A DNA stretch of 64,000 bases, taken from positions 118,606,001-118,670,000 of the forward strand of contig OX597815.1 in assembly GCA_951406725.2 (NCBI GenBank), in the 5' to 3' direction. Source of the stretch: Octopus vulgaris (taxonomy: Eukaryota). Positions within the stretch are counted from its first letter, which is position 1, and each line of letters opens with the position of its first letter. Position numbers and translations under genes: made by a program. The notes under the pieces were generated by a model, which did no database searches, had not been told where the DNA came from, and saw only the letters and a list, made by a program, of their open reading frames with translations. This document shows positions 19,417-44,040 of this stretch, one piece after another.

Positions 19417-20581
19417 TTAACTAGTTGGCTTCTCTTTGAAAATCTTCCATAACTGTTTCACCAAATCTGTCAAGACTAGATCAGTTGAATTTTTACCTAT
19501 TACTCTTAAGACAAAGACTCCATCATTGCGTAAATAGTTATCTGCGAAGTTTCTATATTGTTTTTTATCGTTATTGATTAGTGGAGTAGCTGAAAGTTTC
19601 AAGTATTTCTTAACGTATGCTGCATTGTTACGTCGGTAAATCATGTAATAGAGCCAACTTATCATGTTTGCTGAAGCTAAAACGGCCACAAAAACAAACC
19701 AGAACCAAAGGAAAATAAAAATCTTTTCATTGAACAGGTTAATAGGCAAGACACATTGGACAGTAAATCGTTGCAGATTAGTCATTTGTCGAATACTGAA
19801 ATCACACAAAGTGACTCGTGGAAATAGTGGTGATTCTTTAAAAGCACCATATTCGTTGAAGTGTTGCATCACTTGGAAACCATAGATGCCAAAATCAGTT
19901 GATAGAAAACTGTTTAACATAAAGAACTGTCCAATGATATTTACAAGATATAAGACTTTAATAGTGAGATAAAGACCAGATAAATATGTTCCTTCACGTT
20001 TACCACAGAAGCAGCAGCAAATTTTGGCAAACTTTTGGCGAGTTTTCACAACAAAATTACAATGGTAAATACGATTAGAATCAAGCCAACGATCCATGAA
20101 ATATGCTATGTGCTCGATAGTTTTTTTGCGATCATCAGGTGAACCATATTGAGTCTTCTCTGCTAATTCACAAAGCTTGTCTAAATTAACGCCTGAGGTG
20201 CCATGAAGAATTCTCCAGAGCAAATTTGGGGCTTTAAACAAAAGAGCTTGAAAAAGAAGAATTAAAGGCACCCACTGGTAATATGTTAATTGTCTGTCTT
20301 CTCTTTCATTAATATTAACAGGAATCGTGTCTGACATTGGAATATAGTAAGTATTTGAAATCCAGCATATCCATTTGGTATAGGCAACATATGCTCCTGT
20401 GAATTGGGCTGGGCACCAACAGTGTATTGGGTCACCAACCAACTGGCCTGTAGTGACTACTATTGCAAAGAGAACAAGGACAACCGATGAGTATATATGG
20501 CTCATGCGATCGACCCAGTCATCATTGGCTGCTGAAGTTAGACGGGAGAAGGTGGAGAAAGATCCGAACACACCCCACACC
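19417..20581 (-). CDS. Innexin (UNC-9/UNC-7-like gap-junction protein), main coding exon; 388 aa once the split ATG is completed
   Basis: DDWVDR..TM1, GDPIHCWCP, CWISNTY, YYQWVP, FPRVTLCDF, TVQCVLPINLFNEKIFIFLWFW, YLRNDGVFVLR; four TM segments; strong acceptor tttgtttttctttctttacag ending at 20582; TAA at 19417-19419. Confidence 0.97.
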
Positions 20582-20849
20582 CTGTAAAGAAAGAAAAACA
20601 AAGCAAATTAATATTTCTGAGCTATAATCACATCTGATAAATAATCAACAATAATCAAATGGCAAACATTTATGTAGGAAAAATGGTACAATCAACCATT
20701 GATATGTAATAGTTACAAGCATAAAAGAATATTTATGCAAAGTATACAGCAACATTTTCTTTTACAAATTTGATTAAAAAAATTTTTGTTTTAAATTTAA
20801 GAAAAATTAATTTTTTTTAAAAACAAGTAAAAAAAAAATATATACTCAC

Positions 20850-20852
20850 CAC
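20850..20852 (-). CDS. Candidate 3-nt innexin microexon (GTG), phase 2-2, adds Trp
   Basis: cattcatgacag|GTG|gtgagtata; attaac branch-like motif in a roughly 48-nt AG-free zone; U-rich downstream. Confidence 0.5.
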
Positions 20853-21084
20853 CTGTCATGAATGGTATATGAAATAATATTTACCAAGTTAATTTTAAAA
20901 TTCTAATATAACTAGCTAATAACAAGCTATTTTGAAGACCACATTTTTGTAGTGACATGGCTTTTTATAGATATAGATTATGTAGCTTAGATTTTGCACT
21001 GGAGGAAGGCAAAAGCATTTTAGCAGTAGCATGCTTCTCAAATAGAGCATATTTTATTATTGAATGTCCGTCCCTTCCCGTTCA

Positions 21085-23995
21085 GACAGTAATTTGTGGA
21101 AAGCAGGTCTGGTGAGATGATTCAGATGCTTGAATGGAGATGTGTAGATTTGTGCTGTAGGGTGGAGAGGAAGTTCTAAGTTTCTCACAGGCAAAGAATA
21201 TAGGTATAAGACTTTCTGGGAAGGTAACACTGATGGGGTTGAGGGTGTGGATATACTCCTTGCTGAGAAATGGATTGATAAGGTAATCGAGGTAGTCAGT
21301 CTGCAACATGGATTAGCAACAATTATCTTGGCCTATGCCCTTCAGCCAGGGCTATCTGATGAACAGAAAGAACGATTTCATGACACCCTCTTGCAGACCA
21401 CCTTGTTGATGAATGACAGGGACCTTCTCTTCATGGCTGGGGACTTCAATGGGCATGTTGGACAACATCCAGAGAACTTCTATGGTGTACATGGTGGCAA
21501 AGGATTTGGTACCTGCAAGGAGGGAACCAGGCTGCTGGAGTTCTGTGATGCAAATGATCTTATGGTCTGTGTAATACCATCTTCAGGAAACCAGCCAGTC
21601 ACCTGTTCACCTACCAGTCTGATGGGCACACTAGTCAGATTGACTACATTCTCACCAGGAAACAAGAAAGATGGCTACTTATAAATGCCAAAACATTCCC
21701 AGGTGAAGAATGCACCCCACAACATAGGTTAGTAGTTAGTGACAGCAGGATCAAGACTAAATGGCTGCCCAGAAGATGACCAGTGTGGGGAAAAAAGGGT
21801 CTGGAAGCTTAAGGATCCTCTGAATGGACAGGGCTTTTGATGAAAAAGAGGATATAGCATCACAATGTGGAGGACAATTGGGGGTTCTTATAGGACAGCC
21901 GGTTGAGGGCTACTGACCAGGTCTGTGGCTGATGCAAAGTCCCCACTTGACCTAAGGTGACATGGTAGTTGAAGGGAAAAGAAGCAGGCATGGAAGGACT
22001 GAAGGTGTGGTGGTAGCAGGGAACTGTAGCAGATCACCAGAAGTGAATCTAGGAGACACAGGTTTACTTAGCCAGAGAGGTAGCAGATAAGTAAAAATTT
22101 GCCAATGTTCTGTGTTGTGAGAACTAGAGATTTCAAGTGTTTTCTATTGCAAGACAGAGTGTGAGAGAGAATTGTAATGCCATAGGAGAGAAATATGTCC
22201 ACTTGCGTTTAATGACGCTGCAAAAAGAGCAACTTGGAGACACCACAATACAAGGTTGGTTGCTAAATGAAGAGAATGAGTGGGTGAAAGAGTCTGCCAA
22301 ATGTCAACCCAACAGGGGGACCAGCTATTCAAATTGACAGTACCGATGGTAGATAAGCAATTAAGGGTAAGAAGGCAGGGAAAGCCCCCACCACATCGGG
22401 AATCATTGCTGAGATGCTTAAAATGTCTAGGTTTAGGCTATAGTCTAGTCACCTGTATAGTCCATCAGGTGAAACATGAAGGAGTTATACCCAATGACTG
22501 GTGTAACAGCACCATAGTCAACTGCTACAAAGGTAAAGGTGATGCATTATAGAAATAGAGCTATCAAATTGTAGGATCAGGTGACGAAAGTCAGAGAGGG
22601 TCATAGCCCAACGAATTAGGGAGAGAGTTTACAAGCCATCGACAGGGATGCTGTCAGTAAAGTGAGGGTTGACAAGGAGTATGGCAAAGAGTTCTGGGTA
22701 GAAGTTCACCAAGGATCGGTGCTCAGCCTCCTCTTGTTCATCATAGTCCTCCAGGCAATAACACAGGAATTTAAGACAGGCTGTCCCTGGGAGCTCCTCT
22801 ATGCGAGTGACATTGCTCCAATAGCTGAGTCACTGCCAGAACTAGAGAAGTTTCAATTATGGAAGCAAGGTCTAGAATCAAAGGGCCTTAGAGTAAATCT
22901 AGCACAAACCAAGTCTTAGTAAGTAGGAAGGCAGACAAATTGCAAACCCTTTCAGGTAGATGGCCTTGCTCAATGTGTAGAAAAGGCATAGGTGGAAACT
23001 CCTAGCATGTACCCGGTGTAAGATATGGACACCGAAAAGGTGCAGCAATACCAAAGGACGTTTATCTGGGAAAATAGTTTTTTTTGTGTGGAAGATGCAC
23101 AGGTGCAATAAACACCAAAGATGTACAGAATACAGATTCCATCATATGCCGGGGAAAACTAGAAGTAGTTGAAAGCTTCCATTACCTAGGTGATCAAGTC
23201 AGTAGTGGGGATGGATGCTCCGAGAGCGTAGCTGCTAGAATAAGAATAGCATGGGCAAATTTTGGAGACCCCCTACCTCTACTGATAACAAAAGGCCTCT
23301 CGCTCAGAGTAAAAGGTAGACTGACTGTATTTTGCTTGAGTTCAAACAGCTATGTCACACAGCAGTGAAACATAGGCTGTGACATGTGTAAGCTTGAAAG
23401 AAATGAAGCTTGTATGCTCCACTGGAAGTGTGATGTCAACATGCATACAGAGTGGAAGTGTCCTGAGAGAAAAGTTGAAGCATCAGATGTAGTGTGCGAG
23501 AGATGACTGCACTGGTATGGTCATGTGATGTATATGAGGACAACTGTGTGAAGATGTGTCACACCCCAACAGTGGAAGGAACCTGTTGAAGAGGTAGACC
23601 CAGGAAGACTTGGGATGAGGTGGTGAAGCATGAACTTTGAACATTGGACTTCACAGAGGAAATGACAAGTAGGCAGAAGATGCCAGTGTTGCATAAATGG
23701 CCCATTTAAAAGCACCCTTTAATCATTGGGCAATATGCCATGCTTGTGAAGACCTGTTGAACCAAGTGAAATCATAGTCATGTCAGGGCTTCCTGACTGA
23801 CACCCATGTTGGGACATAAAAATCACCATTCAGCGTAGCTGAGGGCGATGCAGCCTGACTGGCATTAGGAAGGGCATCCAGGTGTAGAAACCCTGCCAAA
23901 TCAGAGTGGAGCCTGATGCAGCCTCCCAGCTTGCTCAGTCAAACCGTCCAACTCATGCCAGCATGGAAAGCAGATGGAAAGTGGATGTTAAACTA
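21085..23995 (+). mobile_element. Degraded RTE-clade LINE (APE endonuclease + RT), antisense inside the innexin intron
   Basis: AGDFNGHVG..GTRLLEFCDANDL (APE); IPNDWCNSTIVNCYKGKGDAL and VHQGSVLSLLLFIIVL..PWELLYASDI (RT); Cys-rich insert WPCSMC..CTRC..KRC..CGRC; many stops and frameshifts. Confidence 0.93.
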
Positions 23996-24056
23996 CAATG
24001 ATGATATTTCCTGCATATGCAAAGGCTCTTTGTTGGTCCATATGTTCATGTATGTG

Positions 24057-24120
<64 letters not shown>

Positions 24121-24376
24121 CAAATAAAATGAGTTTGTTCAAAAATTTGGTTACATCATAAGTTTTATTAATAATAATGCATATGGAGTTCAATATACTG
24201 GTTCTAGTGTACAAAACTTAAATCATTCTATATAATTATATGTGCACATGTAGAATGATGTGTGCATACACATGCATGTGCATTTATAAATATATAATCT
24301 TTTGTTTCTTTCATTGGACTACAGCTATGCTGGAACACCACCTTAAGTTTTAGTCAAATTAGTCAACCTCAGTATG

Positions 24377-24420
<44 letters not shown>

Positions 24421-24424
<4 letters not shown>

Positions 24425-24735
24425 CATGGTTGTGTGATAAGAAGCTTGCTATTGTGTGGCACCTTAGACAAGTGTCTTCTACTATAGCCTTAAGCCAACC
24501 AAAGCTTTGAGAGTGGATTCGGTAGACAGAACCTGAAAGAAGCTAGTTGTGTGTGTGTGTGTCCCCTACCACTGCTTCACAACCCGTGTTGGTGCATTTA
24601 CATCCCCATAACTTAACAGACTAATAGAATAAGTATCAGGTTTAAAAAATAACTACTGGGATGGGGTTGATTCATCCAACAAAGGTTCTTCAAAGTGCTC
24701 CATCATGGCTACAGTCAAATGACTTGAAACAAGAC
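24421..24735 (+). mobile_element. SINE family A, old and CpG-decayed
   Basis: Similarity to the 9562 copy. Confidence 0.8.
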
Positions 24736-26002
24736 ATAGCCTAAGGCTATACTAGAAAACATTTGGAAAAAATGTATAGTGGGATGAGCCACATGGTTGG
24801 GAAACAAGTTTTTTTATCCACAGCTATTCCTGCATGCACACACATTATATAAATATATATATATACTACATACGTACACATGTAATTACATATATATGAA
24901 AAAGACTACCTAAACGATTTAAGCAAGACCTACTATCTTTTAAATATGTTAGCAATGTTATTTCTTAAAATCATTAGAAATAACTGTTACAATGGAAATG
25001 ATTTTTCTTTAGCTCCGAAATAGAATCATTATAGGAATTTACATATTTTATAAACATTTAAAATCTATTACATTGAGAATACAAGCTACAAAAGATCTAA
25101 AAGGTATTAACTTTATTTTACATAATTCCCCCACTCCATTGATATTATTTAGAAATAGTTTCACACGAATACTTAATAATTAAAACAGCATGTCAATCAT
25201 TTATATATTTACTTCATCACATCACCACCACCTGGGAGAAATATTTGCTCTTGTGTAACTGAGAAAATTTAGTGTATAACACAGACCACATGTTTACATT
25301 GTAATTTTTTCCCCCCTACGTTTTTATTCTATTGTTTTTGTTTTTCAAAAGCAACTGGAGAGATCCCAAAAGCTGCTGATTTAAATGTGTCCAATTGCAT
25401 TTAATGGCAACGTGTCAGCCATTGCTGACTGTAAAAGTCATTGACAAGTTGACAACCAGCTAACAGCAAATAGTAACCTTTTCTCAAAAGGTGGTCTAGT
25501 CTATTCATACACACACACACACACACACAGCAAACTAATTTTTCAATCCAAGCCAATTTCAAAAACAAAAAACTTTTTTCTTCTATTTATCTAGCCTTGA
25601 GTTAAACTAAACCAAGCAACTACAACTACCTTACTACTGTCTCTGTAAACTAGTCACATTACATTTTGAACTCAAATATTACATTAAAACCAACTAGATA
25701 TGACTAGTGAAGACTTCTTTCATTGTTTTAACTGGTGTCTGGAAGGGAGAGAGCCCCTGACTTTTGCAAGATTTTATAAATTGGTGACGATGATGCTGTT
25801 TAGATTGTTGCAGGTAAACATTGGCAAAAAATTTAAGATTCTGGGGATGTGGTAGTGTTAATACTCTGAGTATTTTTAGTGCAAAATTGGGGACACGGGT
25901 GAGAGAGTAGAGAGATGAGTTAGTAAGGGACACGAGACAAGGAGGTTATGGGTCCAGCTAGCTCTGAGGAACAGCAGCCACTATTCTATCCTTTTTTCTT
26001 CT

Positions 26003-26410
26003 TTTATGTTTCAGTCCTTTGACTGCGGTCATGCTGGAGCACTGCCTTTAGTTGAACAAATTGACACCAGGACTTTTTCTTTGTAAGCCTAGTACTTACT
26101 CCATTGGTTTCTTTTGTTGAACCGCTTTGTTATGGGGATGTAAACATACCAACATTGGTTGTCAAGTGATGGTGAGGGGACAAACACATATGCACACACA
26201 CACACACACACGTGTGTGTGTGAATATATACATATATATACATATACAACAGGCTTCTTTTAATTTCTGTCTACCAAATCCACTCACAAGGCTTTGGTCA
26301 GCTCAAGGCTATAGTAGGACACACTTGCCCAAGGTGCCATACAGTCGGACTGAACCCAGAACAATGTGGTTGGTAAACAAGCTACTAACTACACAGCCAC
26401 TCTTGCGCCA
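26003..26410 (-). mobile_element. SINE family A
   Basis: Reverse-complement similarity to the 9562 copy. Confidence 0.88.
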
Positions 26411-26678
26411 GGAGTAGCAATAAAAATATAAAAACTAGTGAATATCAATCGGGGCTTTGTGAAAGCTATTTTATCAGAACTTCTCATGAAGTAGATTTTA
26501 TCAATTTGATCTCCTAAGATATATTAAGGAACTCATTATCCCATTACCATCTAGCCATATTCATGCATGACTTCTTATATTTTTTCAAGTGCATGTGTGC
26601 GTCATCACAGATTCAATACAATTAAATAACATTGCTCACAGTTCAATTACAATTATTTTCTTTTGATGAATGACATTT

Positions 26679-27030
26679 AGGAGTGGCTGTGTGGTAAGTA
26701 GCTTGCTTACCAATCACATGGTTCTGGGTTCAGTCCCTCTGTGTGGCACCTTGGGCAAGTGTCTTCTACTATAGCCTCAGGCCAACCAAAACCTTAAGTA
26801 GATTTGGTAGACGGAAACTGAAAGAAGCCCGTCATGTGTGTGTATATATATATATACTTGACAACCGATGTTTGTGTATTTACATCCCTGTAACTTAGTG
26901 GTTAAGCCAAAGAGACCAATAGAATAAGTACTAGGCTTACAAAGATGAATTCCTGGGGGCGATTTGTTAGACTAACGGCAATGCTCCAGCATGACCACAA
27001 TCAAATGACAAACAAATAAAAGAATAAAGG
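26679..27030 (+). mobile_element. SINE family A
   Basis: Similarity to the 9562 copy. Confidence 0.88.
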
Positions 27031-27659
27031 AATACACTCACACATGATGGACTCTCCTGGAGACAACGTATGAGTGTTCAGCTTTTGCCTAATGACCTGT
27101 ACAGATGATTTGTTTATAGTGATCAAATGTATGTGCTGCACATTGGCTCACTCCCTTCATCAAATCGACATTGTCCAAACAGGTGCACTAATGCCAGGTA
27201 TCAAAGTAATCACAGAGCTACACGAGATGAGTTTTCCTCAAGAACACAATGCAGCACCGTCTAGGAATTGAACTCAGGAGTGATCATGGGTGCAACAACA
27301 CCCTAACCACTAAGCCATGTCCCATTGCACTGCACCTTGGACAAGTGTCAGCTACTATTTATTGCCTCAGAACAAACAAAACCTTGTGGATGGATTTGAT
27401 GAACTGAAAATGGAAGAAGTCCATCTTGCGTATATACGTGTGTGTGCATCTTATCTTTCGCTTATTTCAGTCACTAGGCAGTGGCCATGTTTGGAGCACT
27501 ACCTTGGAAGGTTTAGCTGAACAAATCAATCCCAGTACTTATTGTTTTTTTAAGTTTGGCACTTCTTAGTTATCATCATCGTTTATTCTTATTCTATCAG
27601 TCTTTTTTGTTAACCACACACAGAGTGTGAATGTTTGCACTTCTTTGTTCTCATGTCTC

Positions 27660-28290
27660 ATGAACCTTATTTTGGATTGAATAGTGCCTGGTGACCAAAA
27701 ATGGGTTCCCTATAAAAATGTTAAGACAGTGGGTAGGGAAAGGAGAAACATCAGCACCTCAGGCTAAAGAAGGTCTTCACCCATGCATGGTGTTATCTGT
27801 TTGGTGGGACATGAAAGGTTTAGTCCACTTTGAACTTTTAACCCCAAACTAAATAACAAAGAAGATCTACTGCAAGCAGCTTAAGTCAATGCTAGAAGAA
27901 AAATCTTTGGTTTCAAGACAAAAGGTGTTCTTCCATTAGGATAATAATGCTCACCACATGACATTCTGAAGGCTGGAGCAGTTTGAATGGGAAATTATGC
28001 CCACCCCACCCATATTCGCCAGACATTGCTCCATCTGCTTATTTATTTCAGTCTTCAAAATCATTTGGACAGAAAAATATGAATTCTGTAGATGTGGTCA
28101 GAACAGTACTGGAGGAGTATTTGCCATGGACAAGCGAATTTTGGAAGGGGGTGCTTGCAAGTTTACCAGATAGATGGAAGATCATTGTAGAAAATGAAGG
28201 AGAGCATATTTTAGGTTTAGAAAGAACTTTGTTTACCTTAATTTTGAAAAATAAAAGTATAAAAACCCATATTTTTATGGGATGATGTAA
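27660..28290 (+). mobile_element. Degraded mariner (DD34D) transposase catalytic region
   Basis: GDQKWV, VLSVWWDMKGLVHFELL, PYSPDIAPSAYLFQS, LPDRWKIIVENEGEHI. Confidence 0.9.
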
Positions 28291-31200
28291 TATATATAGG
28301 TAGCTGATCTTTTCATTTTCTATTGACGAAACCAAGGCATTTGTGCCCCTAAGCCCACGGTTGAGTGGTTGGTGTTAGGAAGGGCATCCAGCCATAAAAA
28401 CCGTGCCAAAAACAGACACAGAAGCATGATTCAGGCTCCTGTCTGGCCGGGTCCTGTCAAAACGTCCAACCCATGCCAGCATAGAAGGATGATGATGATG
28501 ATGAAGACTATAGCAGAAGGCACTTGCCCATGGAGCTGAGCAGTGTGACTGAATCCAAGACCACATGGTTGGAAAGCAAGCTTCTTAAACATGTATGAAT
28601 ATACATGCCCACATGCAAAAGATACAAAAATATTCATATCATTTAACTAGGCTCATTTAGATACTTTTACACAAAATTGGGTTGGCTTATCTTTTAAAAG
28701 GCGTCTATGTTTCCATATTTTGCCTTACTTTTTGATCAGCTATTGTTTCTTTACAAAAATATTTATCAATGAATAAATATTATGAGCAAAGTTTCACCAG
28801 ATAAAACTTAAGAAGTCAATGTTCCCTCTGATATAAGACTGAAAGAGTGCAAAGATGTTTTTGTTTTCAAACTGTTTTCAAATGATTCCAATGTACAAGG
28901 TTGTTTCAGTTATCTTTGTGACACAATGTAGACTAGTGATTCTTACCCTGGAATTGGGGAAGAACTCACAAAGGGGGAGCAACGGTCAGGAGAGGAATGG
29001 TCTGAGTGGGGTTTTTTTTTGAGGGGTGGGGTCTATTCTTCTAAACAGCCAAGCTAAGATTTAACTAGATTTTTAAAATATTTTTGGAAGTCCACTTAGG
29101 ATTCAAGCAGTTTTTTTTTTTTAGATGTAACCACTGGCATTTCATGTCAGTGGCCAATACTTGGAAAGAACCATGTAATAAAATAAAAGATCTGCTAGGA
29201 AGAAGAAGCTCATTGGATAACAAAATTTGAAGAGAAAAATATGGCTATAATAAACATTTATAAAAGGATTACCAAGCTCTGTGTATCTTAGAATGTAAAC
29301 ATAAACCCAGTATTTAAAGTTATTTGTAAAGCAGTAATATATGTGCTTGGTTCCTATTCTTGTGTTTTTGTCTTGCAGATCAAATGGAATAAAAATATGA
29401 AGTCAACAAAGCTACAAAAGAGGTTGTTCTTTTTTAATTTTCTACACTTTTGTTCTATTTCTGCCGAAATACATTGCCTTTGTTTCAATTTTAAGAATAA
29501 TGAATTAATTTGATAAGATAACTCGGTATGAAGGTGGTGTTTGGAACAAATATGAAAATTTGATAGGTTTTAATTTTAGATCACTTTTATGGAATATTGC
29601 ATCATAGAACCCAAGAGCTGTCTCATCAGTATCAAAGGGGTTAAACAGCACCTGTTGCTATGAAGGAATCGCTACATATTTAATGATGTGAAAATCAGCA
29701 ACTGACATGTATGTACGAGACGACATGCAGTAATGAGATAAAACATTTTTTGTTAGGCTGAATGGAGACTGTTGCAACTAAGGTGTAAATATAATAGCAA
29801 ACAGGTTACCCACTTTTCTCAATTGGTGAAGTCGATGTTTTTTTTTTTCCACTTCTTCCTTTTACAGAATTCATATTATTCCTATTAAACTATATTGTAA
29901 CAGAACGAGATCTTGTTACTCTGTTGCTCCATTTATATAGGAAGGAGAAATCATTTCCTTCTTAAAAGTATATCTCAACTTTCAGGTTTTGCTAAGTAAA
30001 GATTTTTTTTTTTTTAAGATTTTGTATAAATATTGGTTTAAAATTTTGGCACAACGCCAGCAATTTCAGAGAAGGGGCTAAGTTGATTACAACAACCCCA
30101 ATGCTGAACTGGAACTACCATGAAGCATTTTGCCCAACAAACTAACAAACATTTTTGCCAGCTCCCATTCATAAGATTTTGAACAAATATAAAGCATTGA
30201 ATATATTTAACTTTTTTTTCTCATTTTCAATACTAATTTTCAATACTAATTTTGTTTTCCTATAAAAAAATAAAGAACAAATAATCTTTGTAGTCAAGCT
30301 CACATATTAAAATCAGTGCACCAAATTTGGCCAGACTATAATGGTTTAAGTATTTACATAAATTCTAAGTTTGTTTCACATGAATTTTCATGACTGGGAA
30401 GATATAATTGAACTTATAAACACACTCACTAGTTGTTTGTCTATATTTTACTTCTTTTTGAAAGCAATTGAAAAATATTTTCCCAATATTTTTTCACTTT
30501 CATTATGTCCAACATGGCGGTCTTGGAACATCATGCTCCTTTAACAGGTTTTCCATGCTGGACATGGGTCGGACAGTTTGACCGGAGCTAGCAAGCTGGA
30601 GAGCTGCACCAATGTCTTGGTTCCTACTGCTGGATGTGCTTCCTAACATTAACCACTTTACAGTGTGTGCTTTTAATGTGTCACTGCACAAGCACTTTAA
30701 TGCAAAACCGCAAGCACTTTTTGTGACACCAGCACAAGATTTGCAATCCATCGTTACTGCAGATCACATATAGGTGCTTGGTGCATAAAAGAACACACAC
30801 ACACAGATCATAGATGAGAATTGTCTGTGATGAGCAGCAGAATTTCCATATGTGATTTCATTCTACAAGAAAACAGTGAAAAGCATCGTCACCACATGCC
30901 TATCAAATCTCACTGCTACAATATATAAAATACCAGCATCTTTTAAGACATTAGTATTGCAAATAGCCAGCAGATTTAGAAAAAAAATTTCATTATTACT
31001 GATGGAATGAGTATTCACTAGATGCTTCTCACTGGTGATTTCCAGGAGAATGAAATTGTAATATGGGAATTTTGGTACACATGACAGGCAATTCTTATCT
31101 GATTTGTGTGTTCTTTTAGGTACCAAGTGCCAATATGAGGGGAGCTAACAAGGCTGATAACACAGTATTCAGTATTCTAACAACACATTCATGTTAAGTT

Positions 31201-32364
31201 GGATTTAATAGTTATCATATGCAGTTTTCATAGTCACAGAAGTGACCATGTTTAGAAGATTGCTACCCAACCAAGAGGTTTCAGGTTCCAACCTACTGTG
31301 CAGCAGCTTCACAAGTGTCTTCTGCTGTAGCCAGAGGCCACTCAGACTTGTGGCTGAATTTGGTAGATGAAAACTATAGGAAAGCTATGTGTGCATATTG
31401 TTCAAAATCCGTTATGTTGCAAAAATAAATAAATAAATTGGTCTGTTCATAGGCTTTTATATTGCCTTCCTAAATACCAAATATTAAACAATCATTTTAT
31501 TGTTTAAAAACTATGTCAGAAATTTTATATATATATATATATATATTAGATCATTAAGATTAAAATGAAACTAAGGCATAATAGTAAACTACATGGGTAG
31601 CAGTCAAATTTTTCGTTCAAGTGTCTTTTATAACCCAATATTTGCATGTTTATTTTATATATAGCTTCATCTATTTAAGTTCCACTGTTCAAAAATTGTG
31701 TGTATGCACATGCACTGTAAACCACACAAAACGTTTAGCTCAGTAGTGACCCTCACTCAACCAGTATAATCTTTTTCTTTAAATTCATTTAACCTAAACA
31801 CAGTATTATTTCTAGTGGGAAGTTAAAAAGGGGAAGAGATTAGTAGAGAAAATCTTTCTTCAAAATAATATTCAGCTACAGCATTACATCATAGCCTTGA
31901 TGATGATGATAGTTTTGTTGAATGCTGCTGATTGGAAGAAGGATTTTAACACAATTGCAGTAGTGGTTTTGCTAATGTGGTAGGGATACTTGTACATATA
32001 ATAACTAAACTAAAAGGTTAAAAAGTAAGCCAATATCTAGAGCTGCTACATGCAGTAATAATACATAAAGGGCAGGCAGTGGAGCAAGACATGCAGTGAA
32101 GCATCTGACAATATTGTTTTCACTTAATAGACAGCTCAGATTTAAAGTTAGTAGAGTTTAAATGAAAAGGTGCCAATCTTGAGTACCAGTTCAGTAACTA
32201 TTTAGGTCATAAAACCCGGTAAATTTTTATGCCAGTTGAAATACACACATACACACAAAGGAGAGCAGTTAATGGAATAGCTTTACATATCAAAAATCAG
32301 CAATCAATTACTACAGTTAAGTATATACATTAAACCTAATTTATATACACTAAGCCTATAAATT

Positions 32365-33015
32365 TAACTGGCTATATCTAGTCAAAATATTGTACCTGCC
32401 TCATGTTCAAACTGGCTAGATCCAGCCTTGAACATCTACCCCTACAATGTTATTCTAAAAGTATAAACAATCACATCATCAATTGATATCTCAAAGCAAC
32501 AAGATAATTCATGATTAATTTAAAGCAATATGAATAAATATATTTCACAGAAAAATCTGAATGCTAATGGGTTAAATACCACAGCATTTAATACATTTTG
32601 ATACCAACCCATCTGAGATCACTAATGGTTCTGGTGCAAATTTACTGTTTCAAAGTGATTTAACCTTTTAGCATTCAAATTACTCAATCAAATGTAATGC
32701 TTATTTACTCATATTGTCTTGAATTAAACATGCATCGTCTTGTAGCTTTGAGATTTCAATGTAATTGTCCCTTTTTAGAATAGCATTGTAAGGTATGTAT
32801 AAAAGTCCAGATTTGGCCATTTTAAACATAAATGTGGGATATTTTGACCCAGATATGACCAGTTTAAATGCTAAATTTAAACTTTCCATCAAAATGTCAT
32901 GTTAACTTATGCAAACACCAGCTTAAGTTATTTCATTAAATTCTTCATTGTATTAATAATTGACAAACACAAAGCAAGTGCATTTCAACATAAATATAGC
33001 AATAAATATGTTAAA
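32365..33015. mobile_element. Cluster of piggyBac-type (TTAA-flanked) MITEs, partly nested
   Basis: Ends ttaaccttttagcatt / aatgctaatgggttaa; related to 56232-56726 and 29430-29645. Confidence 0.65.
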
Positions 33016-33662
33016 TCCTGAGCTTATTCTAATATCATAGTCATGCTTCTATGACTTAAGGTTACTAGCACACTTGATTCTGTAGACAAAACCTGTAAGG
33101 AAACTAAATCCTAGATACCTAAACCATTTTACCCCTCCAGTTAAGTATAAACTTGAGCTGCAGAGATATAGTTTTCATAGAGACAACAAAATGCTCACAA
33201 TAGGATAAGGAATATTGACCACCATGAAGGCTAACAACTTGAACTTTTCACCTCTTAGTATGTGAAAATACTGAAAATGTAATTATGCTGAAAGCTTTAT
33301 TAGAATTAACTTTACGACAGCATCTTCATATTTATTAAAAATTCACAGGTTCTCTCAAATGGTTACTAAAAAGATATAGCAAAGAAATATGAATGGGTAT
33401 AGAGAGAACTAGTTGAAGAGCAACATTATTAAGCAGAATAACTAAATGTAAGAGAAAAATTAAATCCAAAGCCAAAACAGTTCAAACTAGAAGCATGCAG
33501 AGAGAAGTGTATATATATATGTATGTGTGTATACACACACACATATAAAAAGACGTATATATAGAGAGACAGAGAGAGAGAGCAGAAGGAAGAAGGAGCC
33601 AGGACAGAATAAGCTGTATTGACTAAACATTCTACATGGGAGAAAAGTTGAGTTTCACTTAC

Positions 33663-33684
33663 CCCATTGTTTTATTTAAAAGGG
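33663..33684 (-). CDS. Candidate alternative start exon of the innexin (ATG GG|), either the 3' end of a first exon or a 22-nt internal exon
   Basis: cctaaccag|cccttttaaataaaacaATGGG|gtaagtg: consensus donor, phase 2, good initiation context; gives MGVWG or MGWVWG. Confidence 0.5.
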
Positions 33685-34564
33685 CTGGTTAGGATTGAGT
33701 GTATACAGATATTTCCCTAACTGTTAGAAAAATAACTAATTAAAATTCATGATAAAATAAAGACTATAATAACTTAGTAATTAAACATTTCAAGTCTTAT
33801 TTCTTACATCTACTATAGAGTGCAAAAAATAACTATTACATTATAAATATAACACCAGCTGAAATAAAAGCAATAAGCCTATCTGCTGGAGAAGTGTTGA
33901 CTTGGTGTTATAATTGAAGCGTTTTGCAATGATATTCCTTTAATATCCATCAACCTCTCTGACTTATTTTACACACTTGAGCTTTTTGAATTTCTGATTG
34001 TGTAAACTTCAATAACCAACTGTCTCAACACCAGAAACCAAGACTAATGATTGATTCTAAGAAACAGAAGCATCTGATAGAATATGTTTTGCAGCATTTA
34101 TTCTGGCTCTCTGCACATTGAGTTCAAGTCCCAAGATCAACTTCACTTCTTTTCAGATTACCAGTCAAGTGATGGGATTAATTCTCTCTTTGGAAGAAGT
34201 CAATTATGACCTGGAGAAAGATGGGCACAGCCCTATTGTAATAAGCCAAACATCTTCCTAAAATATATCTTTAATATATTTCAAAACATACTACTGGAAT
34301 ATCTTTGTCAAATCTCTTTTAGATAAGCTTTCAGAATTATTGAACCTCCAGTGATTTTCCTTGGTTACTTTGGTAATTCAAGACTTTTGTTTTCCTGCAA
34401 CTAACACTAAATTTTCCTACACAAATGAATCAGGTATTCCTGTTCAAAAAAGAAATACCAAGATTGGACTACAAATAATGAATTACATCACTTTTCAAGA
34501 CTAACACCCCATCAACTTTTTTTTTTTCAATTTGTTTAACTAACTCAACTAAAAACATACCTAC

Positions 34565-34750
34565 ATCATCATCATCATCGTTTAGCGTCCGTTTTCCATG
34601 CTAGCATGGGTTGGACGGGTCAGCTGGGGTCTGTGAAGCTGGAAGGCTTCGTCAGGCCCAGTCAGATCTGGCAGTGTTTCTACGGCTGGATGCCCTTCCT
34701 AACGCCAACCACTCCGCGAGTGTAGTGGGTGTTTTTTACGTGCCACCTGC
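34565..34750 (-). mobile_element. RTE-related 3'-end fragment with (GAT)n tail
   Basis: Similar to 23860-23995 and 28365-28505 (ggaagggcatccag..ccgtccaacccatgc). Confidence 0.75.
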
Positions 34751-37700
34751 ACATATTTTTTTATTCACAAGTAAAATTTCTATTTTGGGCCTAGACCATC
34801 ATTCAATTTTTGAAAATGTGCTACTTTACAAAATTCATCTGGGAACTCCAGTTCAGAGCAACTATATTCCTTTACTGAGGTTACAGTGTAGGACTCATGA
34901 TCATAAGTTTGTGGTTTTGATTCCCAGTCTGGGCAATGCATTGTGTTCTTGAGTAAAACACTTCATTTCACATTGCTCCAGTCCACTCATCTATCAAAAA
35001 TGATTGTGTGATGGACTGGCGTCCTGTCCAAGGAGGAATATATATGCTAGAGAAGCCAGCCCAATGCTCCTTACAGAGCAATGTGGACTAACCAATATTC
35101 CTTTATTACTACTAAGTTATTACTATTACCAGCTTTATAACAGATTTAGGTTGTACCTTTAAACTTTATGATTGATTGATTCTAGTTTCAGCTTATGAGC
35201 TGTGGCCATGCTGGGGCACCGCCATTTATAAAAAGAAATTAAAAACAAAAAACCCACCACCACTCATAAAATACATCCAAAATATTTCCTCTGCACAGAC
35301 GCCATATATAGAAATATTAACACTTTATTAAACTTTCTAAACACCAACTAGAACCAAATACAATTTTGTATGACAATCTAGAGAAACTCTGCAATATTCA
35401 AGCATTACTGAAAAGGTATAATATATACGTAATGCCCCTTTACAATCTAATCTCAGTATTTATTTTTTTTTTAAATGTCTTCTACTCATGAAAATGAATT
35501 CCACACATTTTGCAAAGTGACCTCATCAACTGGTTATGAAATTATTCAGATAATCTACAAATGTTGATTAATAATAATCTAACGGTCAAATTTCTGATTC
35601 ATTCAAATGAATATTTCTCTGTCTTTCCAATTTAAATTCATCTAATCTTGTAAAATTGTTGTCCTTGAACACCCACACTTGAACTGGAGAGAGGTCAGGG
35701 AAAATGGAAAGCAGGTTTAGTTTGAGTGTATAACAAAAACTCAAATTATAATTTCATCATTTTATGTCCACATTCCATGCTGACGTGGCTTGGATAATTT
35801 GGCATGACAGGTCTTACATTAAGTACACCATTTGCCTTTCATTGATCTTTATTAGAAAGTGTTCTTCAAATTTCATCAGAAATTACTAGTTTCTCGCCAG
35901 AGAAATAATTCAAGATTTAATATTTCCTCATGGAATGTTGTCTAAAGTAAGAAATCTACTTCTACAATACTTTAAAGCTTTGGACTAAATACAGTGCACA
36001 TATGTAAGCAAGCATGTGTACATCTGAAAGTCTAGCAATAGTAACCTTCATACTGGAAATTAGGTCTAAGTTTGAAATTAATATAGTAGTATCTCTTTGC
36101 CAATAACATATAGGTTTAATTCTTCTCTAAAAATGTCAGTCTCAGGATTTTAAAAATTAAGTTCATGAGACTAAATAAATAGCAAACTTCCCAGACACAG
36201 CCTTCAATAAAATCAAATTATTTTATTGTTACTTTTTTGTAAAAGTTCTTTCTGCTTTTCAAACTAGATTGACTTCTTTGCAATGGCTAAAGCAGGAAGA
36301 AGCAATTTATCTGAACTGGAAAAATGAATTCAGTTGTATCTACTATGACACCTATCAACCTTGACGACCTGAATATGTGACATTATGATTTCAAAATAGA
36401 AAAACGCAATGTTTAATGAATAGCCTAAGACAATGAATGCTAAAAGTTTATAAGCACAAGTTGCATGAAAAACAAAATAACTATTTAGCTTAGGTACTAG
36501 AAGACATCAACACATAAACGACAACTTAAGAAATTAAAAAGAACTCTGCAGAGAAACAGAATTATCCATTTTCAGTTCGCCTAGCTTGTAAATATCTTAA
36601 AAGGTCTCTCCCAAGATTATGTAGGACTCGTAGTTCTTCGTATAATATTAGTTCATAAGCTGTTTTGGTGCATCACATATTCCTCAGTAAACTTGATGAA
36701 ATGCTGGAGAAAACAATCTAAACTTGTATTTGAAAACATCCAATTCTTCATGCAAAAAGTATTGCTGGCTGGTTGTGTTGTTAAGAAACGCTCTCTGCAA
36801 ACTATGATTTCGTGTTCGATTCTTCTTTTCAGTACCACAGGTAATTGTTCATGCCAGCCTAGGTCAAACAAGGTCTTGTGAAATTTGGTAGACAGAACAA
36901 TTTGAACGAAACAATTGTTGCATTCAGTAAATGAAATAGTGAGTAGTGAAAAGTAGTCGTTCATAGTGAAAGAAGTTCGTAGTGAAGTAGTTCAAAGTGA
37001 AAGTAGTTCAAAATGAAAGAATTCATTCATATTGAAGACCTCATAGTGAAACTGTCTGTCATTCATTCATGAAAATAAGTCATTACATATAAAAGGTTGT
37101 AGTATTGTACTTTCATTTTCTCGCTGTTTCGATCAGTAAAGTAGCACGCAAATATCATATCATATCTTTAAAAAGTGTTAAACATTTCAAATTATACACA
37201 AACGTTGTTTTGGACTTCCTTAACATTTGCCAAAGAACTTTTTCAATTTAAATACATTTTCAGCATTCAACAGTCGGGAAAACACCATTCCAAGTTTTCA
37301 TGAACTTAACTGGGACAATAATAATAATGCTTTCATTGAATAAGAGCATACCTACAGTTTTAGCCCATAATCACCAACTTTGTTTCTTCGTAATTCAATG
37401 AAAAATGGTAATTTCTTAATGAAATTTTGCAAAGACGTATTTTAAGAAAAACAAAATTTTTAGCAGTTTCGGATCATTCTCACCTATTTTCGACAGTTTC
37501 CACATAACTCATTAAAATGTACATTTTGAAATGAAGTTTGCAGAAATAAGTTTTCAAGGATATTATAATTATATTGATAACATTTAAAAGAAAAATTGAA
37601 TATTAATAATGCCTGAAGGAAATTGATCCGAAAGTAAAAAGAAAAGCACCCAGTACACTCAAAATTTTGAGTTAGGCCGTATTCAGCCCATACAAACTAT

Positions 37701-38317
37701 GCCAAAGCAGACGTTGGAGTTTGACGCAGTCTTCTGGTTCATCAATCCTATCCAAACCGTGTCTACATGGAGGATGGACATTAACTGATGATTTTTATCA
37801 GCATAGTTGTAATTCACACACTCCAAAACTTATCCCTGCATAGTTTCATTAATAAATATGAAGAAACAAAGTCGGGGAGACATGAAACTGTAGCTAAATC
37901 ACAGAATATGCATAACTTTCAAGAGTATTCTACAGAGACGACGGGAATTGTGAGGAAACCGTTCGGAGCAACCGTTCGCATTCTTGGGCAGGCAGCAGAC
38001 TTAATCTGTCGCTCAATTTAACATCGCATCTGGCCTTGGAGTACCTTTAAAGAAGTCCGATAATTTACTCCGTTTCAGTAGCTTTAAGAGAAATGTTAAC
38101 CTTCTTCCTCGCACTGAACAATCAAAAACATTAATAAAGTTTTAAAAATATCTCAATAGATAGTGCATGCATGCAACAGCAAAGCTTGCCTTATGTACCA
38201 GGAATTATTCTGGTTTATCAAATATTACGAATGGAATATTTTTGGCAAAAGAGAGCTGAACATAACTCTAAATTAAACAAAATAGTGACAAAGAAAAAAA
38301 AAAAGAAAACTACTTAC

Positions 38318-38323
38318 TGACTC
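38318..38323 (-). CDS. Candidate 6-nt innexin microexon (GAGTCA), phase 2-2, adds Ser-Gln
   Basis: ttttcatttttctgttatatcttttcctcag|GAGTCA|gtaagtagttttc: textbook acceptor and donor; no other AG for about 160 nt upstream. Confidence 0.75.
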
Positions 38324-38472
38324 CTGAGGAAAAGATATAACAGAAAAATGAAAATTTAAATCATTTTCGCATATAAGAACCGCAAGTTGAAAAATAATGA
38401 TGAAACAAGAGTAGAAAATATATAATTATTAATTCAATTGATGATTAAATTATATTAAAGCGTTAATATTTG

Positions 38473-38813
38473 AAATGGTTAATATCTAGATCCGCACCCG
38501 GTTGGAAAAATGGAAACGAAAATGTGTAACAGTTGTAAGGCATCGTATATTGACGGAATAAGACGTAAAAAAAGCGCGCTGACAAACGGGGGGGTTGGGT
38601 TGGGGGGGAGGGGGGGAGGGAAATTCCCAGGATCAACCGTAGAGGATCCACGCCCAGGTCCGCCCGTTTGTCAGCGCGCTTTTTTTCCGTCTTATTTCGT
38701 CAATATACGATGCCTTACAACTGTTACACATTTTCGTTTCCATTTTTCCCACCGGGTGCGGATCTAGATATTAACCATTTTCCCACCGGGTGCGGATCTA
38801 GATATTAACCATT
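38473..38813. mobile_element. MITE-like foldback: about 118-bp inverted arms (38473-38590 / 38663-38780), G-rich loop, 33-bp duplicated end
   Basis: aaatggttaatatctagatccgcacccggt..cgcgctgacaaacggg / cccgtttgtcagcgcg..accgggtgcggatctagatattaaccattt. Confidence 0.9.
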
Positions 38814-41800
38814 AACCTTTGAAATTTATGCAAAAAAAAAGTAAATATTAAACAACAACAAATTGTACTTAGAAAGTTTTTAAACCTGCTTCCTACAGGG
38901 CACTTCAGAAGCAAGGTTTGAGAATGAATACACACACGTCCACATGGATTATTTTAAATACCAATTTTCAGCGTGATATTTATTGATTTATTCTTTAAGA
39001 TTTTTTATTTAGTTACTGTCAAAGTATGACGAAATCTAGAAAACAAGTCAAAATACATTTGTATTATAGATGTTATACTTATTAAAATAGTATACTCTGT
39101 GACTACTTGAGGAAAACATTTTTGAATTACCAAGTTAAAAAGTGCATTTCTTGCCAAGTCCGATAAAATGTAACGATAATAAGCTTATTTAGTTATCTAC
39201 CTAAACTTTCTAGATACTTTTTAGAAAAGATTTCCATACATTTATTTCAAAAGAAAGCATGTATTTATTCTTGAATTTTGAACGGTTGATCCTAGAGGTG
39301 ATAATCTGAATTTTTCTCACAAAGCAATCGTAATTGTTTGTCAGAAAATTCTGATGGGAAAAATGCTTAAAGGAGGATTCCATTAGATTCTGATGATTAC
39401 AATATGAACATTAGCCATTTATAACGAGATTAAAGTTCAAGCTCGACAAAACTAGAACGAGCGAGGCATACATACGATAACAATGACTGTCAGGGCATTG
39501 GAAGACGCAATACGGCAGAACTTTGCAACTTCTGTCTTACCTTCAAATAGTTTGAGAATGAAACAAATCTAGCGTCCTAAATTAGAGTTAAAAGGGGTTT
39601 ACCCTTTGTTTCAAGATAAAGATGTATAGTAAGCTAAGCAAATAACGACGCAATGTTAGGAGTGCCATGAAGTTGCCTTCGTGGCGCTATCACAGCAAGA
39701 TATCTTTTATATTTGCTGCAGTCACAGACTACGGCCAAGCTGGGCACCGCCTTCGCGGGTTTAGGCAGTTTTTTTTTTTATAAATTCTAGTACTTATTAT
39801 ATCAATCTTTTCGCCAAACCCTAAGTTACGGGGACGTAATCAAACCAATATCAGTTGTCAAGTGGGGTGGGGTAAACACTAACATATACAAACGCCGGGC
39901 TTCCACAGTTTCCGCCAACAAAATTCGCTCAAGACATTGCCCAAGATGCCGGATAGCGAAACAGAACCTAAAACTAAGTTCTTAATCACAAGGCCTATAT
40001 AAGCAATCTTGTTTACAATCGAATCTCGTAAACTTAGGATCGTTAATTCTAAACAGGAGGAAACTGAGACAAATTCTGAACTTTGCAGTCATATTTGAAA
40101 AATTGACTAGGCTTCAAAATACTATGTTGATGAATATAATTGTGCCTGGGGTTGTTCCGGGTATAAAGTAAAATCTTAGCAAGATGAAACAAATCAAAAG
40201 AAAATCTTTTTGATTACAATTTTTCGAACATTGGTCGATATTTCTAACACAATCAGCAACATGGAATGATGTCGATTTACTCGTCTTCTGTATTCGAAAA
40301 ATTTTGGAAGGTAAGTCGACCTCGCCAAGATTTGAAAAGATGTATTTCAATACCATGAAGCATTTTGGGCAGAATTGTTTCTATCACTGACTTGGAAAAT
40401 TTTTTATGAAAATGAATTTTTAACAGACATGAAACTACATATGGGTGACGATCAATGAGTCAACCCTAGTTACCCAAGTTCTTAAAGGATAACAGTTTTT
40501 AAGTAACTGCCCCCACCTCGAAGCCCCATACATCATGAAAGGAGCACGGGAGACGGCAAAAATGCATAATAGAAATTTTTGGATAATCGTTTTTCCAGGA
40601 TTATTTCCGTTGTATGGAAGAAGTATACAGGAAAGTAAAGAAAACAACTCTTGCTTTTCTCTGGTACTTCGAAATATAGGTATTCCAAAACTCCGCCCGC
40701 CAAGGGACGAAATAATCAAATCCCTCCGGTATAGTTTCTACTATTCTCTCTTTAAAACAAGGAACATTGTAGGGCTTCTGTAATGCTCGCAAGTGCAGGG
40801 ACGAATTTGCAAACACGGGTCCAACCTAAGATGCTTAAAACATTTCTGTCTTTTTTGCCCACCGACCAAAAAAAAAAAAATTTAGGGACTGAGTTTGTAT
40901 CCCCCGTTCCCGAGCCTATGGTTTATTTATTTAAAACAGATACACTCTACATGAAAAAGATGACCCTAGAGACGATTTGCTATGTTGTTAGATCTCCAGT
41001 TCGTAATCTAAAACTTTGTCATGTTTTGTAAGTGTTTTTACAACTTTACGCTGGACTTTTAATAGTTTTGAATAGGAACGTGACAAACTTGCGATATTAC
41101 CAGTTTAACGAGCAGTTTTAAAGTTACTTCCAGGATACGTTAACTGCATCATCACAATGCATTTACATTTAGATACAAAATACGTCCATATATTTAGACG
41201 TGTTGTAGCCGTTCTAGAAATCAGTTTTAATTAACATTCGGACATAAATTTGATTGGACGGAGGGGACAACAACGATATAAGTAAATTATAGGAAAAAAT
41301 ACAGGAATAAATTTTTCAGACTATGCTGAAAATATTTAAATTTCAACACATTTAATTATTTAATTTTTAAAATAACTTAAAATCAATGTGATCGGGACAG
41401 AATTTCTCAAAATGCATTTTAGGGCGAGAAGTAAATAAGGTTACATGAAATTAAATAAAAATTGAAAATAAAACTAATTTTACAATAATACTGCATAGAA
41501 AAACGCGCCAAAAAGTACAGACGTTAAAAAAAAGTTTATTAAGGAAACTGCATTGTAAATGTACATTTTTATACAGTTTATAGCTTACGTTTACTTCCAT
41601 TTGATTTAACAAATCGCAAAAAAAATAATTCGCACACATAACTTAAAAGCTGAAAATAGATGAAGACTAGACCCTAATCTTTTGTTACTACCCTCCACTT
41701 ATTTGCCGGGCGCCATTGTCAATATGACACCATTTTAGGGAGAAGTCTATTTTAACTGTCAGAACAATAAAAAATTAAAAAAACAAAAATCTGGGCTACA

Positions 41801-43071
41801 GTACTTGTATGATAAAAGTGAATTTTTCTTACAACTGACTGTCTATATCGCAAATGGTACATACAGTGGCATACAACAACCGTGAAAATCAAATCCCTTT
41901 CATTCACAAAGCTCTTTAACCACCGCCACGTTGTTAAGTGTCTATAACATGTTCCAGATTCACGATATTTACCATTATCAATCATACAAAGGAGACGGAA
42001 TTCAGGAAAGAGCTGCAGCCTGACAAAAACTTTATTATAAATGTAAATTTCTAAAAACAATTTTCTATAAAAATAATGGCATTTTTTAAAATGATGGTAA
42101 TGAAAATTCCTTCTTCCCTTACATGGGAGGAAAATTTTCCGCAAGGATTTGTTTATCAAACTTCTGAAAGTCGCCAGAAAAAACAAAGTATGGAATTATT
42201 AAGCATAGTAAGAATAAAACGAAAATGCTATTTTGCTATTAAAGCGATACATGTAGACGACAGTAAAACCGAATATTCTTCATTAATTCTACTGTCAGTC
42301 TACATTGCTCAGAGAGCTTCTCTAAAAATTGACAGAAATCCCTAGGTGCAGGTGGAAAGAGGGGAATATATCGACTCAGTCCCTCATCTCAGTCATTGCT
42401 GAAGCATGCGGGAAATGCATGAGGAGGGGGCGAAAAAATCGATTTATAATTCAACTAACAGGACATTCTCTGAAAATACCATTATTGTTCTGAACATGCT
42501 TACATCATACTATTCAGATCTCTTCTTAACCTTGAATATCCCATTATCAAAGAATATTTTGTTATCAATGAGATACAATAGATTTGGTTATCAGATAAAT
42601 ACTGATAAACTTTTAAGGGGAGGAAGGCAGCAATAACCAGACTTGCAGCCCTTAAGAATCGTCATCGCCATTACTGTTCAGATTCTTTATTTCAAAAATA
42701 TAGTTTAAAAAAGATGGAGAAGTATGTATAAAAAAATATTTTAAAATGTGAGAAATGAAAGCCTAGTCAAAAATACTTTTAAGAAATTATCGAAAAAAAA
42801 AATGAGCTGAGTTTGTAGTGCCAATAAAATAGTAATTAACCTTCAACGTAAAAAATACAAACTACGCCAAATTAAAAACGTCAGACACGTGTTATAATAT
42901 TTACATTCATAAGTTTCCATCTACCTATTATTGAGAATCAGAACCCGATGAAATATTTGACCCTTAAACGCCATACTAACAGGAAATCCCTCTCCTTCTC
43001 CAATAAATCACTAAATTTATAACTCTGAGATTTTGTACAAAATTCCATAGATTTGTAAATAATAAACTCAC

Positions 43072-43083
43072 CAATTAACTGTC
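43072..43083 (-). CDS. Candidate 12-nt innexin microexon (GACAGTTAATTG), phase 2-2, adds Thr-Val-Asn-Trp
   Basis: ttactatcag|GACAGTTAATTG|gtgagtttatt; consensus donor; about 80-nt AG-free zone upstream but weak pyrimidine tract. Confidence 0.5.
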
Positions 43084-43533
43084 CTGATAGTAATATTGTT
43101 TGTGATTTCGTGGGAGTACAATTTTATATTAAATATATATATATATATGTATGCGTGTGGAGAATATTCTACATGCTACATAATTAATTTTATATTCAGA
43201 TACAAATAAAATGGAAAGATGGATCTTTGAGCTTTAAGCATTCTTCTTCATAGAACCTTCTTCATAGAACTCGCTTAATTTGTTGGGATTAATCGTTCGA
43301 TACTATATAGTCAAATGCTAAAAAAAAAAATTCTAACGTTTTCTTTTATAGGAATAATGGTACTAAAATGTTAGTTCAGTCAGAGCTCAGGTAAATTAAT
43401 TGATTAAAGAGAACTGTAGCGGCGGTGTTAATAAGTTCAAAAACAAAACAAAACAAAAACTTTAGTCTATGCATGTAATAAAGAACATTCCATACGTTAA
43501 ATGTATTGTCTTTGGTATACAAACTGTACTTAC

Positions 43534-43850
43534 ATGTTTTCTTACTGATGTTTAAACTCGCAAGTTTCTTTTATAAAACTATGTAAAGAAAACTTTTATG
43601 TTAAGAAGGATGGCTGAGAATAAATGCTATCTCATAAATTTCCTTCATCAATATCGCGGCTTCTTTCTCTTCTGGCTTGGAGTTTCAGAAAAGTGCACAT
43701 GTTTGGAAAGCCCCCCTCAGAGAATATCGTCTATGCACGTTGCTTGTAAACATTAGAAGAACGAACCCACAACAGAAAGTAGTTCGTAGATAAAACACAC
43801 GCTCGTCGACGACGAAGACAGATCAGCTCTCTCTTTCTCTGCAAGCGACA
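43534..43850 (-). other. Predicted first exon of the innexin (5' UTR plus the first two bases, AT, of the start codon); 5' end approximate
   Basis: taa gaa aac AT|gtaagtac: consensus donor; in-frame TAA just upstream; AAAACATG context after splicing; repeat-free and CpG-retaining. Confidence 0.65.
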
Positions 43851-44040
43851 CTTTTTGTTAACAATGACATTTCTCACTCATACTACTACCTCTGTTATGT
43901 TCTTACTCATACTACTCCCTCTCTCATTTCCTTCAGCTTTTTTATCAGACCTCCACTTTTATCAACTTTCCTCTTACCCTCTTTAAAAGTTTCTACCACC
44001 CCTGTCTTTCTTCCTCTTATTTCTTCTTTCAGTCTATTTG
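43790..44040 (-). promoter_or_regulatory. Putative innexin promoter region
   Basis: CpG cluster (cgctcgtcgacgacg) and GA/CT-rich tract directly upstream of the predicted exon 1; repeat density rises sharply beyond about 44.3 kb. Confidence 0.35.

Follow-up and report, generated by a model that had tools for sequence, protein, structure and literature searches.

How is a start codon made when the exon that carries a whole channel begins with a lone G? The question is posed by an innexin gene on the minus strand of a 64,000-nucleotide (nt) stretch of the Octopus vulgaris genome (OX597815.1:118,606,001-118,670,000), here called the window, whose numbering is used below. The channel body is encoded by one exon, entered at the acceptor cag/G GTG TGG GGT at 20581, and would act as a phase-2 socket in which any upstream exon joined to the G sets the first residues of the protein. 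An earlier note, made from the DNA alone, had proposed that a first exon ends in the AT of the start codon, that three G-initial microexons of 12, 6 and 3 nt lie between it and the main exon, and that each of the eight combinations has its own length.

All of these sequence features were found on the minus strand as described. The default transcript joins exon 1, ending in AT, directly to the G of the main exon and gives MVWG. Besides this start, the locus holds one well-supported and two probable microexons that would complete the ATG, plus a cassette with its own ATG, together an N-terminal splicing socket that we consider real and partly annotated (Table 1).

Table 1. Features of the innexin gene and its 23-kb intron; slashes mark splice boundaries.
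Feature	Window position	Strand	Basis
Exon 1, 5' untranslated region (UTR) ending with AT of the start codon	43534..43800	-	contig ends in 4/4 runs equal window 43538 onwards
Candidate 12-nt microexon cag/GACAGTTAATTG/gtgagt, would add TVNW	43072..43083	-	sequence; 450 nt below exon 1
6-nt microexon cag/GAGTCA/gtaagt, would add SQ to give MSQVWG	38318..38323	-	matching MSQVWG protein records in two species
58-nt exon with own ATG, ends ATGGG, gives MGVWG	33663..33720	-	joined to main exon in 2/4 runs
15-nt G-initial in-frame look-alike, ends GT	27042..27056	-	inside high-copy repeat
Candidate 3-nt microexon cag/GTG/gtgagt, would add W	20850..20852	-	sequence; 268 nt above main exon
Main coding exon, unc-9-like innexin	19417..20581	-	single G followed by 387 codons up to TAA (19419-19417)

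The default start and the exon with its own ATG

The junctions were read from assembled contigs. Among 19 runs with the gene, the contigs of four (X5, X7, X11 and X18) were compared with window 20000-20950. None of the listed runs is recorded as RNA: X5, X11 and X7 are RNA by guess and the kind of X18 is unrecorded, as are the tissues of the runs; we read them as RNA because their contigs carry spliced junctions. In all four, the contigs cover the 5' 582 nt of the main exon, diverge from the genome at the acceptor and pass into window 43534 onwards, where the donor reads ...AAAACAT/GTAAGT (43534/43533). Because the contigs continue there, exon 1 is the exon that the earlier note had proposed, and the split ATG is confirmed. 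Its 5' end is approximate, at about 43770-43850, assuming colinear contigs. The MVWG form is dominant or sole in three of the four runs and is also recorded for O. bimaculoides, Argonauta and a squid-like orthologue.

The protein encoded by the main exon is an Octopus unc-9-like innexin, predicted to form channels. PF00876 was present on all of the at least 120 matches listed in the protein search, and the 387 residues are 100% identical to O. vulgaris and O. sinensis records and 99% identical to an O. bimaculoides record. The protein shows the innexin pattern of four membrane helices with a cysteine pair per extracellular loop (C57, C75, C262 and C279), and an alignment of 71 sequences has all four cysteines invariant. 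An alignment-based structure model (predicted local distance difference test, pLDDT, 83.6) had C. elegans INX-6 as its best match (template modeling score, TM, 0.69-0.74; E 2e-14); it was used in place of a single-sequence fold, which was discarded at pLDDT 38. A quick-method tree grouped the gene with Argonauta and the squid-like Logan orthologue and resolved no orthologue outside cephalopods. A scan of metagenome contigs returned three distant loci (46-54% identity) and no cephalopod orthologue; comparison of splice sites is thus confined to one genome.

The MGVWG start through the 58-nt exon is shown by contigs of two of the four runs. Rough contig depths for the path via 33663 were 14 versus 819 in X11 and 80 versus 62 in X7. 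X7 holds a 118-nt contig (30+58+30) beside a 60-nt contig joining exon 1 to the main exon, a geometry consistent with a cassette spliced below exon 1. Placed there, the 58-nt exon would break the split codon and supply its own ATG. MGVWG is on record in O. vulgaris/sinensis and in O. bimaculoides. With a further possible acceptor, at 33684, the exon would be 22 nt long. The list of elements in the earlier note was incomplete, as it lacked both this exon and the 15-nt repeat look-alike. The omission matters for the idea that each combination has a unique length. MGVWG (+1) has the length of the predicted MWVWG, and a 58+3 form, MGWVWG (+2), would have that of MSQVWG. Because the 58-nt exon yields forms of equal length, the one-length-one-combination property fails.

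Three minor points concern these exons. Six upstream ATGs with short open reading frames lie inside or just above the exon-1 5' UTR (window 43635-43881, minus strand). In X11, the depths over window 20552-20581 balance only if one unlisted 31-letter contig (depth 650) covers the opening 30 bases of the main exon; the exon-1 contig shares 29 bases with the main exon instead of 30. A second upstream path, ending in T but differing in the base before it, is implied. It could be another exon (GT closes the repeat-derived 15-nt site), an edited end of exon 1 or a leftover of assembly. In the main exon, X18, which comes from a different coded organism, has one fixed G>A change (plus strand, window 20512).

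Microexons predicted to complete the start codon

The 6-nt microexon had been predicted from DNA alone, and the product expected of it, MSQVWG, is precisely how two records start: XP_036354388.1 (O. sinensis) and XP_014772954.1 (O. bimaculoides). Both are predicted proteins, which we assume, from RefSeq practice, to rest on transcript alignments. An MSQ start could also come from an exon with its own ATG. In about 123 kb (from the main exon up to the end of the window, plus the 80 kb beyond it) there are 11 ATG-Ser-CA strings, none of them followed by GT or GC. Since none precedes a donor, AT/GAGTCA/G is the only source of MSQ that we found. A 6-nt microexon that would complete the ATG with its own G is thus well supported as annotated in two species.

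The 12-nt and 3-nt sites are each quite probably real exons, a judgment that draws on splice-site sequence and statistics. For both, a constitutive exon is no more than 450 nt away, and the 12-nt site has a single match in the genome. All three microexon sites have canonical AG/GT boundaries and keep the frame, and the eight combinations that they allow are all stop-free, with the peptides that the earlier note had listed. Two look-alikes in the intron were set aside as repeat-derived: the 15-nt site at 27056, which surfaced before repeats were masked, with 3,980 candidate genome matches and copies with similar letters, and a 12-nt site at 26952, with a short interspersed element (SINE) depth of 41.

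How often would such sites arise by chance? Repeats cover about 21% of the 23-kb intron, leaving 18.1 kb. We defined a strict site as YAG, up to 15 nt and GTRAGT, with an AG-free zone of 18 nt upstream, and counted such sites in a repeat-masked control of 520 kb on both strands (40 10-kb stretches and the rest of the window), which includes paralogue introns and thus possibly real exons. The control held 28 strict sites, of which one was G-initial, a multiple of three and stop-free. In the intron all three strict sites have these properties, versus 0.035-0.073 expected (Poisson p ~6e-5, or ~0.003 with one site left out).

Two features outside the selection criteria point the same way. The AG-free zones upstream of the 12-, 6- and 3-nt sites measure 83, 160 and 48 nt, versus a control median of 30 and maximum of 72, and the downstream T fractions are 0.50, 0.70 and 0.63, versus a control median of 0.30. 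None of 41 controls equals any one site on both features together. When post hoc thresholds on both were combined with strict donors, the control yielded four sites, none of them G-initial and a multiple of three. The 6-nt site alone among the three has a strong pyrimidine tract (0.8), and the 3-nt site has TTAAC at -40. These figures favor a non-random origin of the three sites.

Minor variants, chance look-alikes or a code

On balance we favor the reading that microexons completing the ATG extend the phase-2 N-terminal socket here and serve as minor variants in the tuning of channel gating. The 12-nt and 3-nt exons would be used rarely, probably in a limited set of cell types, which may be neural, and for the most part singly. 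The N-terminal helix of INX-6 lines the pore funnel. The octopus N-terminus aligns in register with INX-6 from residue 4 of the latter, and in the structure model it forms a helix at residues 2-10, though at low confidence (pLDDT ~50); alignment and model thus support the earlier view that the variation falls where this helix begins. Between one and seven added residues would sit at the tip of the helix, and because of that position they would be expected to alter the voltage gating or the rectification of junctions, homotypic as well as heterotypic. The microexons would also alter the second residue, on which removal of the initiator Met and N-acetylation depend. It is plausible that one to seven added residues, or a different second residue, would tune gating.

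A number of observations weigh against this reading. None of the three microexons appears in the contigs of the four runs, which is weak evidence because contigs drop rare variants. The O. bimaculoides MSQ record is found only in a source with earlier isoform numbering, and current NCBI entries for that species hold just 389- and 388-residue forms. Two near-length searches and one short-protein search of protein records returned no MWVWG or MTVNW form; the short-protein search gave one candidate for the N-terminus, which was not a match. The acceptors of the 12-nt and 3-nt sites have an ordinary pyrimidine content (0.53). The donor cut-off was set after the sites had been seen, and the enrichment depends on it, because the excess weakens with GTRAG (p 0.004-0.01) and vanishes with GTRA (p 0.2-0.3). 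ATG-completing microexons are not the norm of the family, as described below.

Control by SRRM3/4-type factors, which the earlier note had invoked, finds mixed support. Long AG-exclusion zones mark eMIC-dependent exons (10.1101/2021.02.24.432780), and all three sites have them; the genome also contains a Srrm234 eMIC-type exon (PF15230 over cut-off, assembly G000:C25:37317492-37317626). On the other side, none of the three sites has a UGC within 25 nt of the acceptor, a point that also counts against our reading, or a CTAAY within 90 nt that could serve as a CUAAY branch point. UGC, CUAAY and a long pyrimidine tract are enrichments of the class and not strict requirements. Thus, the AG-exclusion zones fit the eMIC class while its other motifs do not.

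The likeliest alternative is that the 6-nt and 58-nt exons are real and that the 12-nt site, the 3-nt site or both resemble exons by chance, in AT-rich sequence close to constitutive exons. Neither of the two occurs in transcript or protein records, their pyrimidine tracts are weak, the thresholds were post hoc with no enrichment under loose donors, and chance does produce such motifs, as the repeat-derived look-alike within this intron shows. Were both sites to fail, what remains would be ordinary, already annotated 5' alternative splicing. We nevertheless consider this explanation unlikely, as two extra strict sites would arise by chance with p ~0.003-0.005, and neither the 41 controls nor the four feature-matched sites of the 520-kb control offer an equal of either site. 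The sequence statistics thus support the 12-nt and 3-nt part of the original prediction, and the transcript and protein records do not. A different doubt is whether the microexons, if real, matter for gating at all: their splicing could be at noise level, or could act in translation control through upstream open reading frames (uORFs) and start context. Their absence from the contigs of the four runs agrees with this, as does the finding that 12+58 or 6+58 joins would place a uORF of 3-7 codons (MTVNC-stop, MSH-stop) ahead of MGVWG, below an exon 1 that already has six upstream ATGs. Two observations make it a poor explanation, and we hold it to be very unlikely: the same MSQ form is annotated in two species, and the paralogue N-terminus MADFLA/MADFFA is shared by octopus and cuttlefish records, a conservation that suggests that such peptides are under selection.

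The strongest form of the original proposal is that three independently switched microexons yield up to eight N-termini as a combinatorial electrical-synapse code. The eight products are open, the three sites are non-random by our statistics, and apparent stacking of inserts in oyster innexins would be a precedent in molluscs. Independent combination was not borne out, however: no record or contig of this gene carries two microexons, and the default form prevails in three of the four runs. The 58-nt exon duplicates lengths, and nothing suggests that the channel reads length as such. Co-regulated microexons also tend to switch together rather than independently. We therefore give this proposal little credence, less than the chance explanation. 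A combinatorial code is unsupported by the present evidence, which neither shows nor excludes it, and its binary-length form is contradicted. A broader version, in which all three microexons are real, cell-type regulated and stackable, with the 58-nt exon as an override and up to 10 N-termini, strikes us as improbable, about on a par with the chance explanation. If it were true, cephalopod neurons would tune electrical-synapse gating residue by residue at the pore tip, and the locus would be the most compact form of the N-terminal socket used across molluscan innexins.

Under our preferred reading of minor tuning variants, the gene belongs beside two known systems. In the UNC-7 system, one innexin gene makes several spliced N-termini, and these isoforms differ in V0, Gjmin and rectification, and thus in voltage dependence (PMC7455501). 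The accessible portion of the ShakB work describes an innexin N-terminus that is required and acts in gating by transjunctional voltage (Vj), and transcript variants, ShakB(Lethal), ShakB(Neural) and ShakB(N+16), whose N-termini set gating and rectification (PMC5412853). The scale is different in the octopus gene: the UNC-7 N-termini range from 24 to 168 residues, whereas here one to seven residues would change, with at least one variant from a microexon that would complete a split ATG. The ShakB variants diverge across much of the N-terminal half, and that portion of the paper does not mention a split-ATG microexon (PMC5412853). Alternative N-termini of the UNC-7 and ShakB type are large swaps, and the microexons would represent unusually fine tuning. 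They would also form a natural allelic series for the effect of N-terminal length and of the post-Met residue on junctions, in an animal for which molecular knowledge of electrical synapses is scant.

With eMIC/Srrm234 (SRRM3/4) microexons the sites share very short, frame-keeping cassettes and long AG-exclusion zones (10.1101/2021.02.24.432780); unlike them, the octopus sites are without nearby UGC or CUAAY, and the candidate exons fall at codon 1 and not in the protein interior. In a literature search over sources other than paywalled articles, databases of splicing and supplements on bioRxiv, no paper dealt with innexin microexons or split-start microexons in cephalopods. The one paper that came up for innexin together with microexons concerns Schistosoma, and the accessible parts of PMC8049302, PMC7052179 and 10.64898/2026.09.14.751627 mention neither innexin microexons nor split start codons. 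The expectation that gene finders overlook such an arrangement holds only in part, as MVWG, MGVWG and MSQVWG are already in RefSeq. Published microexon tables reportedly include octopus, and these could list the 6-nt exon.

Paralogues and other molluscan innexins

Is the design peculiar to this gene? A genome search returned nine paralogous innexin loci. The lone-G acceptor was present in seven of seven paralogues examined; of the two loci outside this count, L008 and L010, the former looks like a lone A. Like the present gene, the paralogues combine this phase-2 acceptor with short alternative N-termini. The difference lies in how those N-termini are made. All four that were mapped (MGSDEE, MDYL, MSIPVS... 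and MADFLA) come from exons with their own ATG, and no comparable strict G-initial microexon cluster was found in the 10-80 kb upstream of the seven paralogues scanned. What is special to this gene is the cluster of G-initial microexons that would complete the ATG.

The nearest parallel is L012, about 215 kb from the gene, where a 19-nt exon with its own ATG (G000:C2:118404955-118404937; MGSDEE-IGS, recorded in two species) lies about 350 nt downstream of a first exon with the end AT/GTAAGT, an arrangement that repeats that of the 58-nt exon. Further own-ATG alternative 5' exons, from two other paralogues (MADFLA, MDYL, MSIPVS...), are at G000:C2:170922774 (L027) and at 171518094 and 171502315 (L023 and L021), and MADFLA/MADFFA is recorded in octopus and in the cuttlefish Sepiella.

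Beyond cephalopods, oyster, scallop and chiton records (P0030, P0153, P0155, P0156, P0056, P0166-P0177, P0028, P0194 and P0070) show series of short N-terminal inserts, often beginning MG(D/E)G and seen in protein records alone. The apparent stacking in oyster runs through MGEG-VEG, MGEG-YFPLVSPTA-VEG and MGEG-HRFYDIGADPTA-VEG, and scallop has alternative N-termini MSE/MPE/MGDG. The tree resolves no orthologue outside cephalopods, so there is no basis for treating scallop MSE as homologous to octopus MSQ. Since paralogues and molluscan records share the design, the phase-2 N-terminal socket is a family trait, and being common to molluscan innexins it opens the question to comparative testing.

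Other observations concern the family and the window. Octopod copies of the main exon end KEKPTS/G (window 19417-19440), and the C-terminal tail of the squid-like orthologue is about 18 residues longer; MWGVF forms of that orthologue (405 residues) were set aside as a probable gene-calling artefact from a GTG start. A recent pair of innexin paralogue duplicates lies on separate contigs with shared upstream sequence (G000:C20:23262697 versus C2:118391350). By eye, fragments resembling the endonuclease and reverse transcriptase of long interspersed elements (LINE) and mariner transposase occur at window 21148-23800, 3496-4050, 27962-28285 and 1361-1819, and besides these the window contains many SINE copies.

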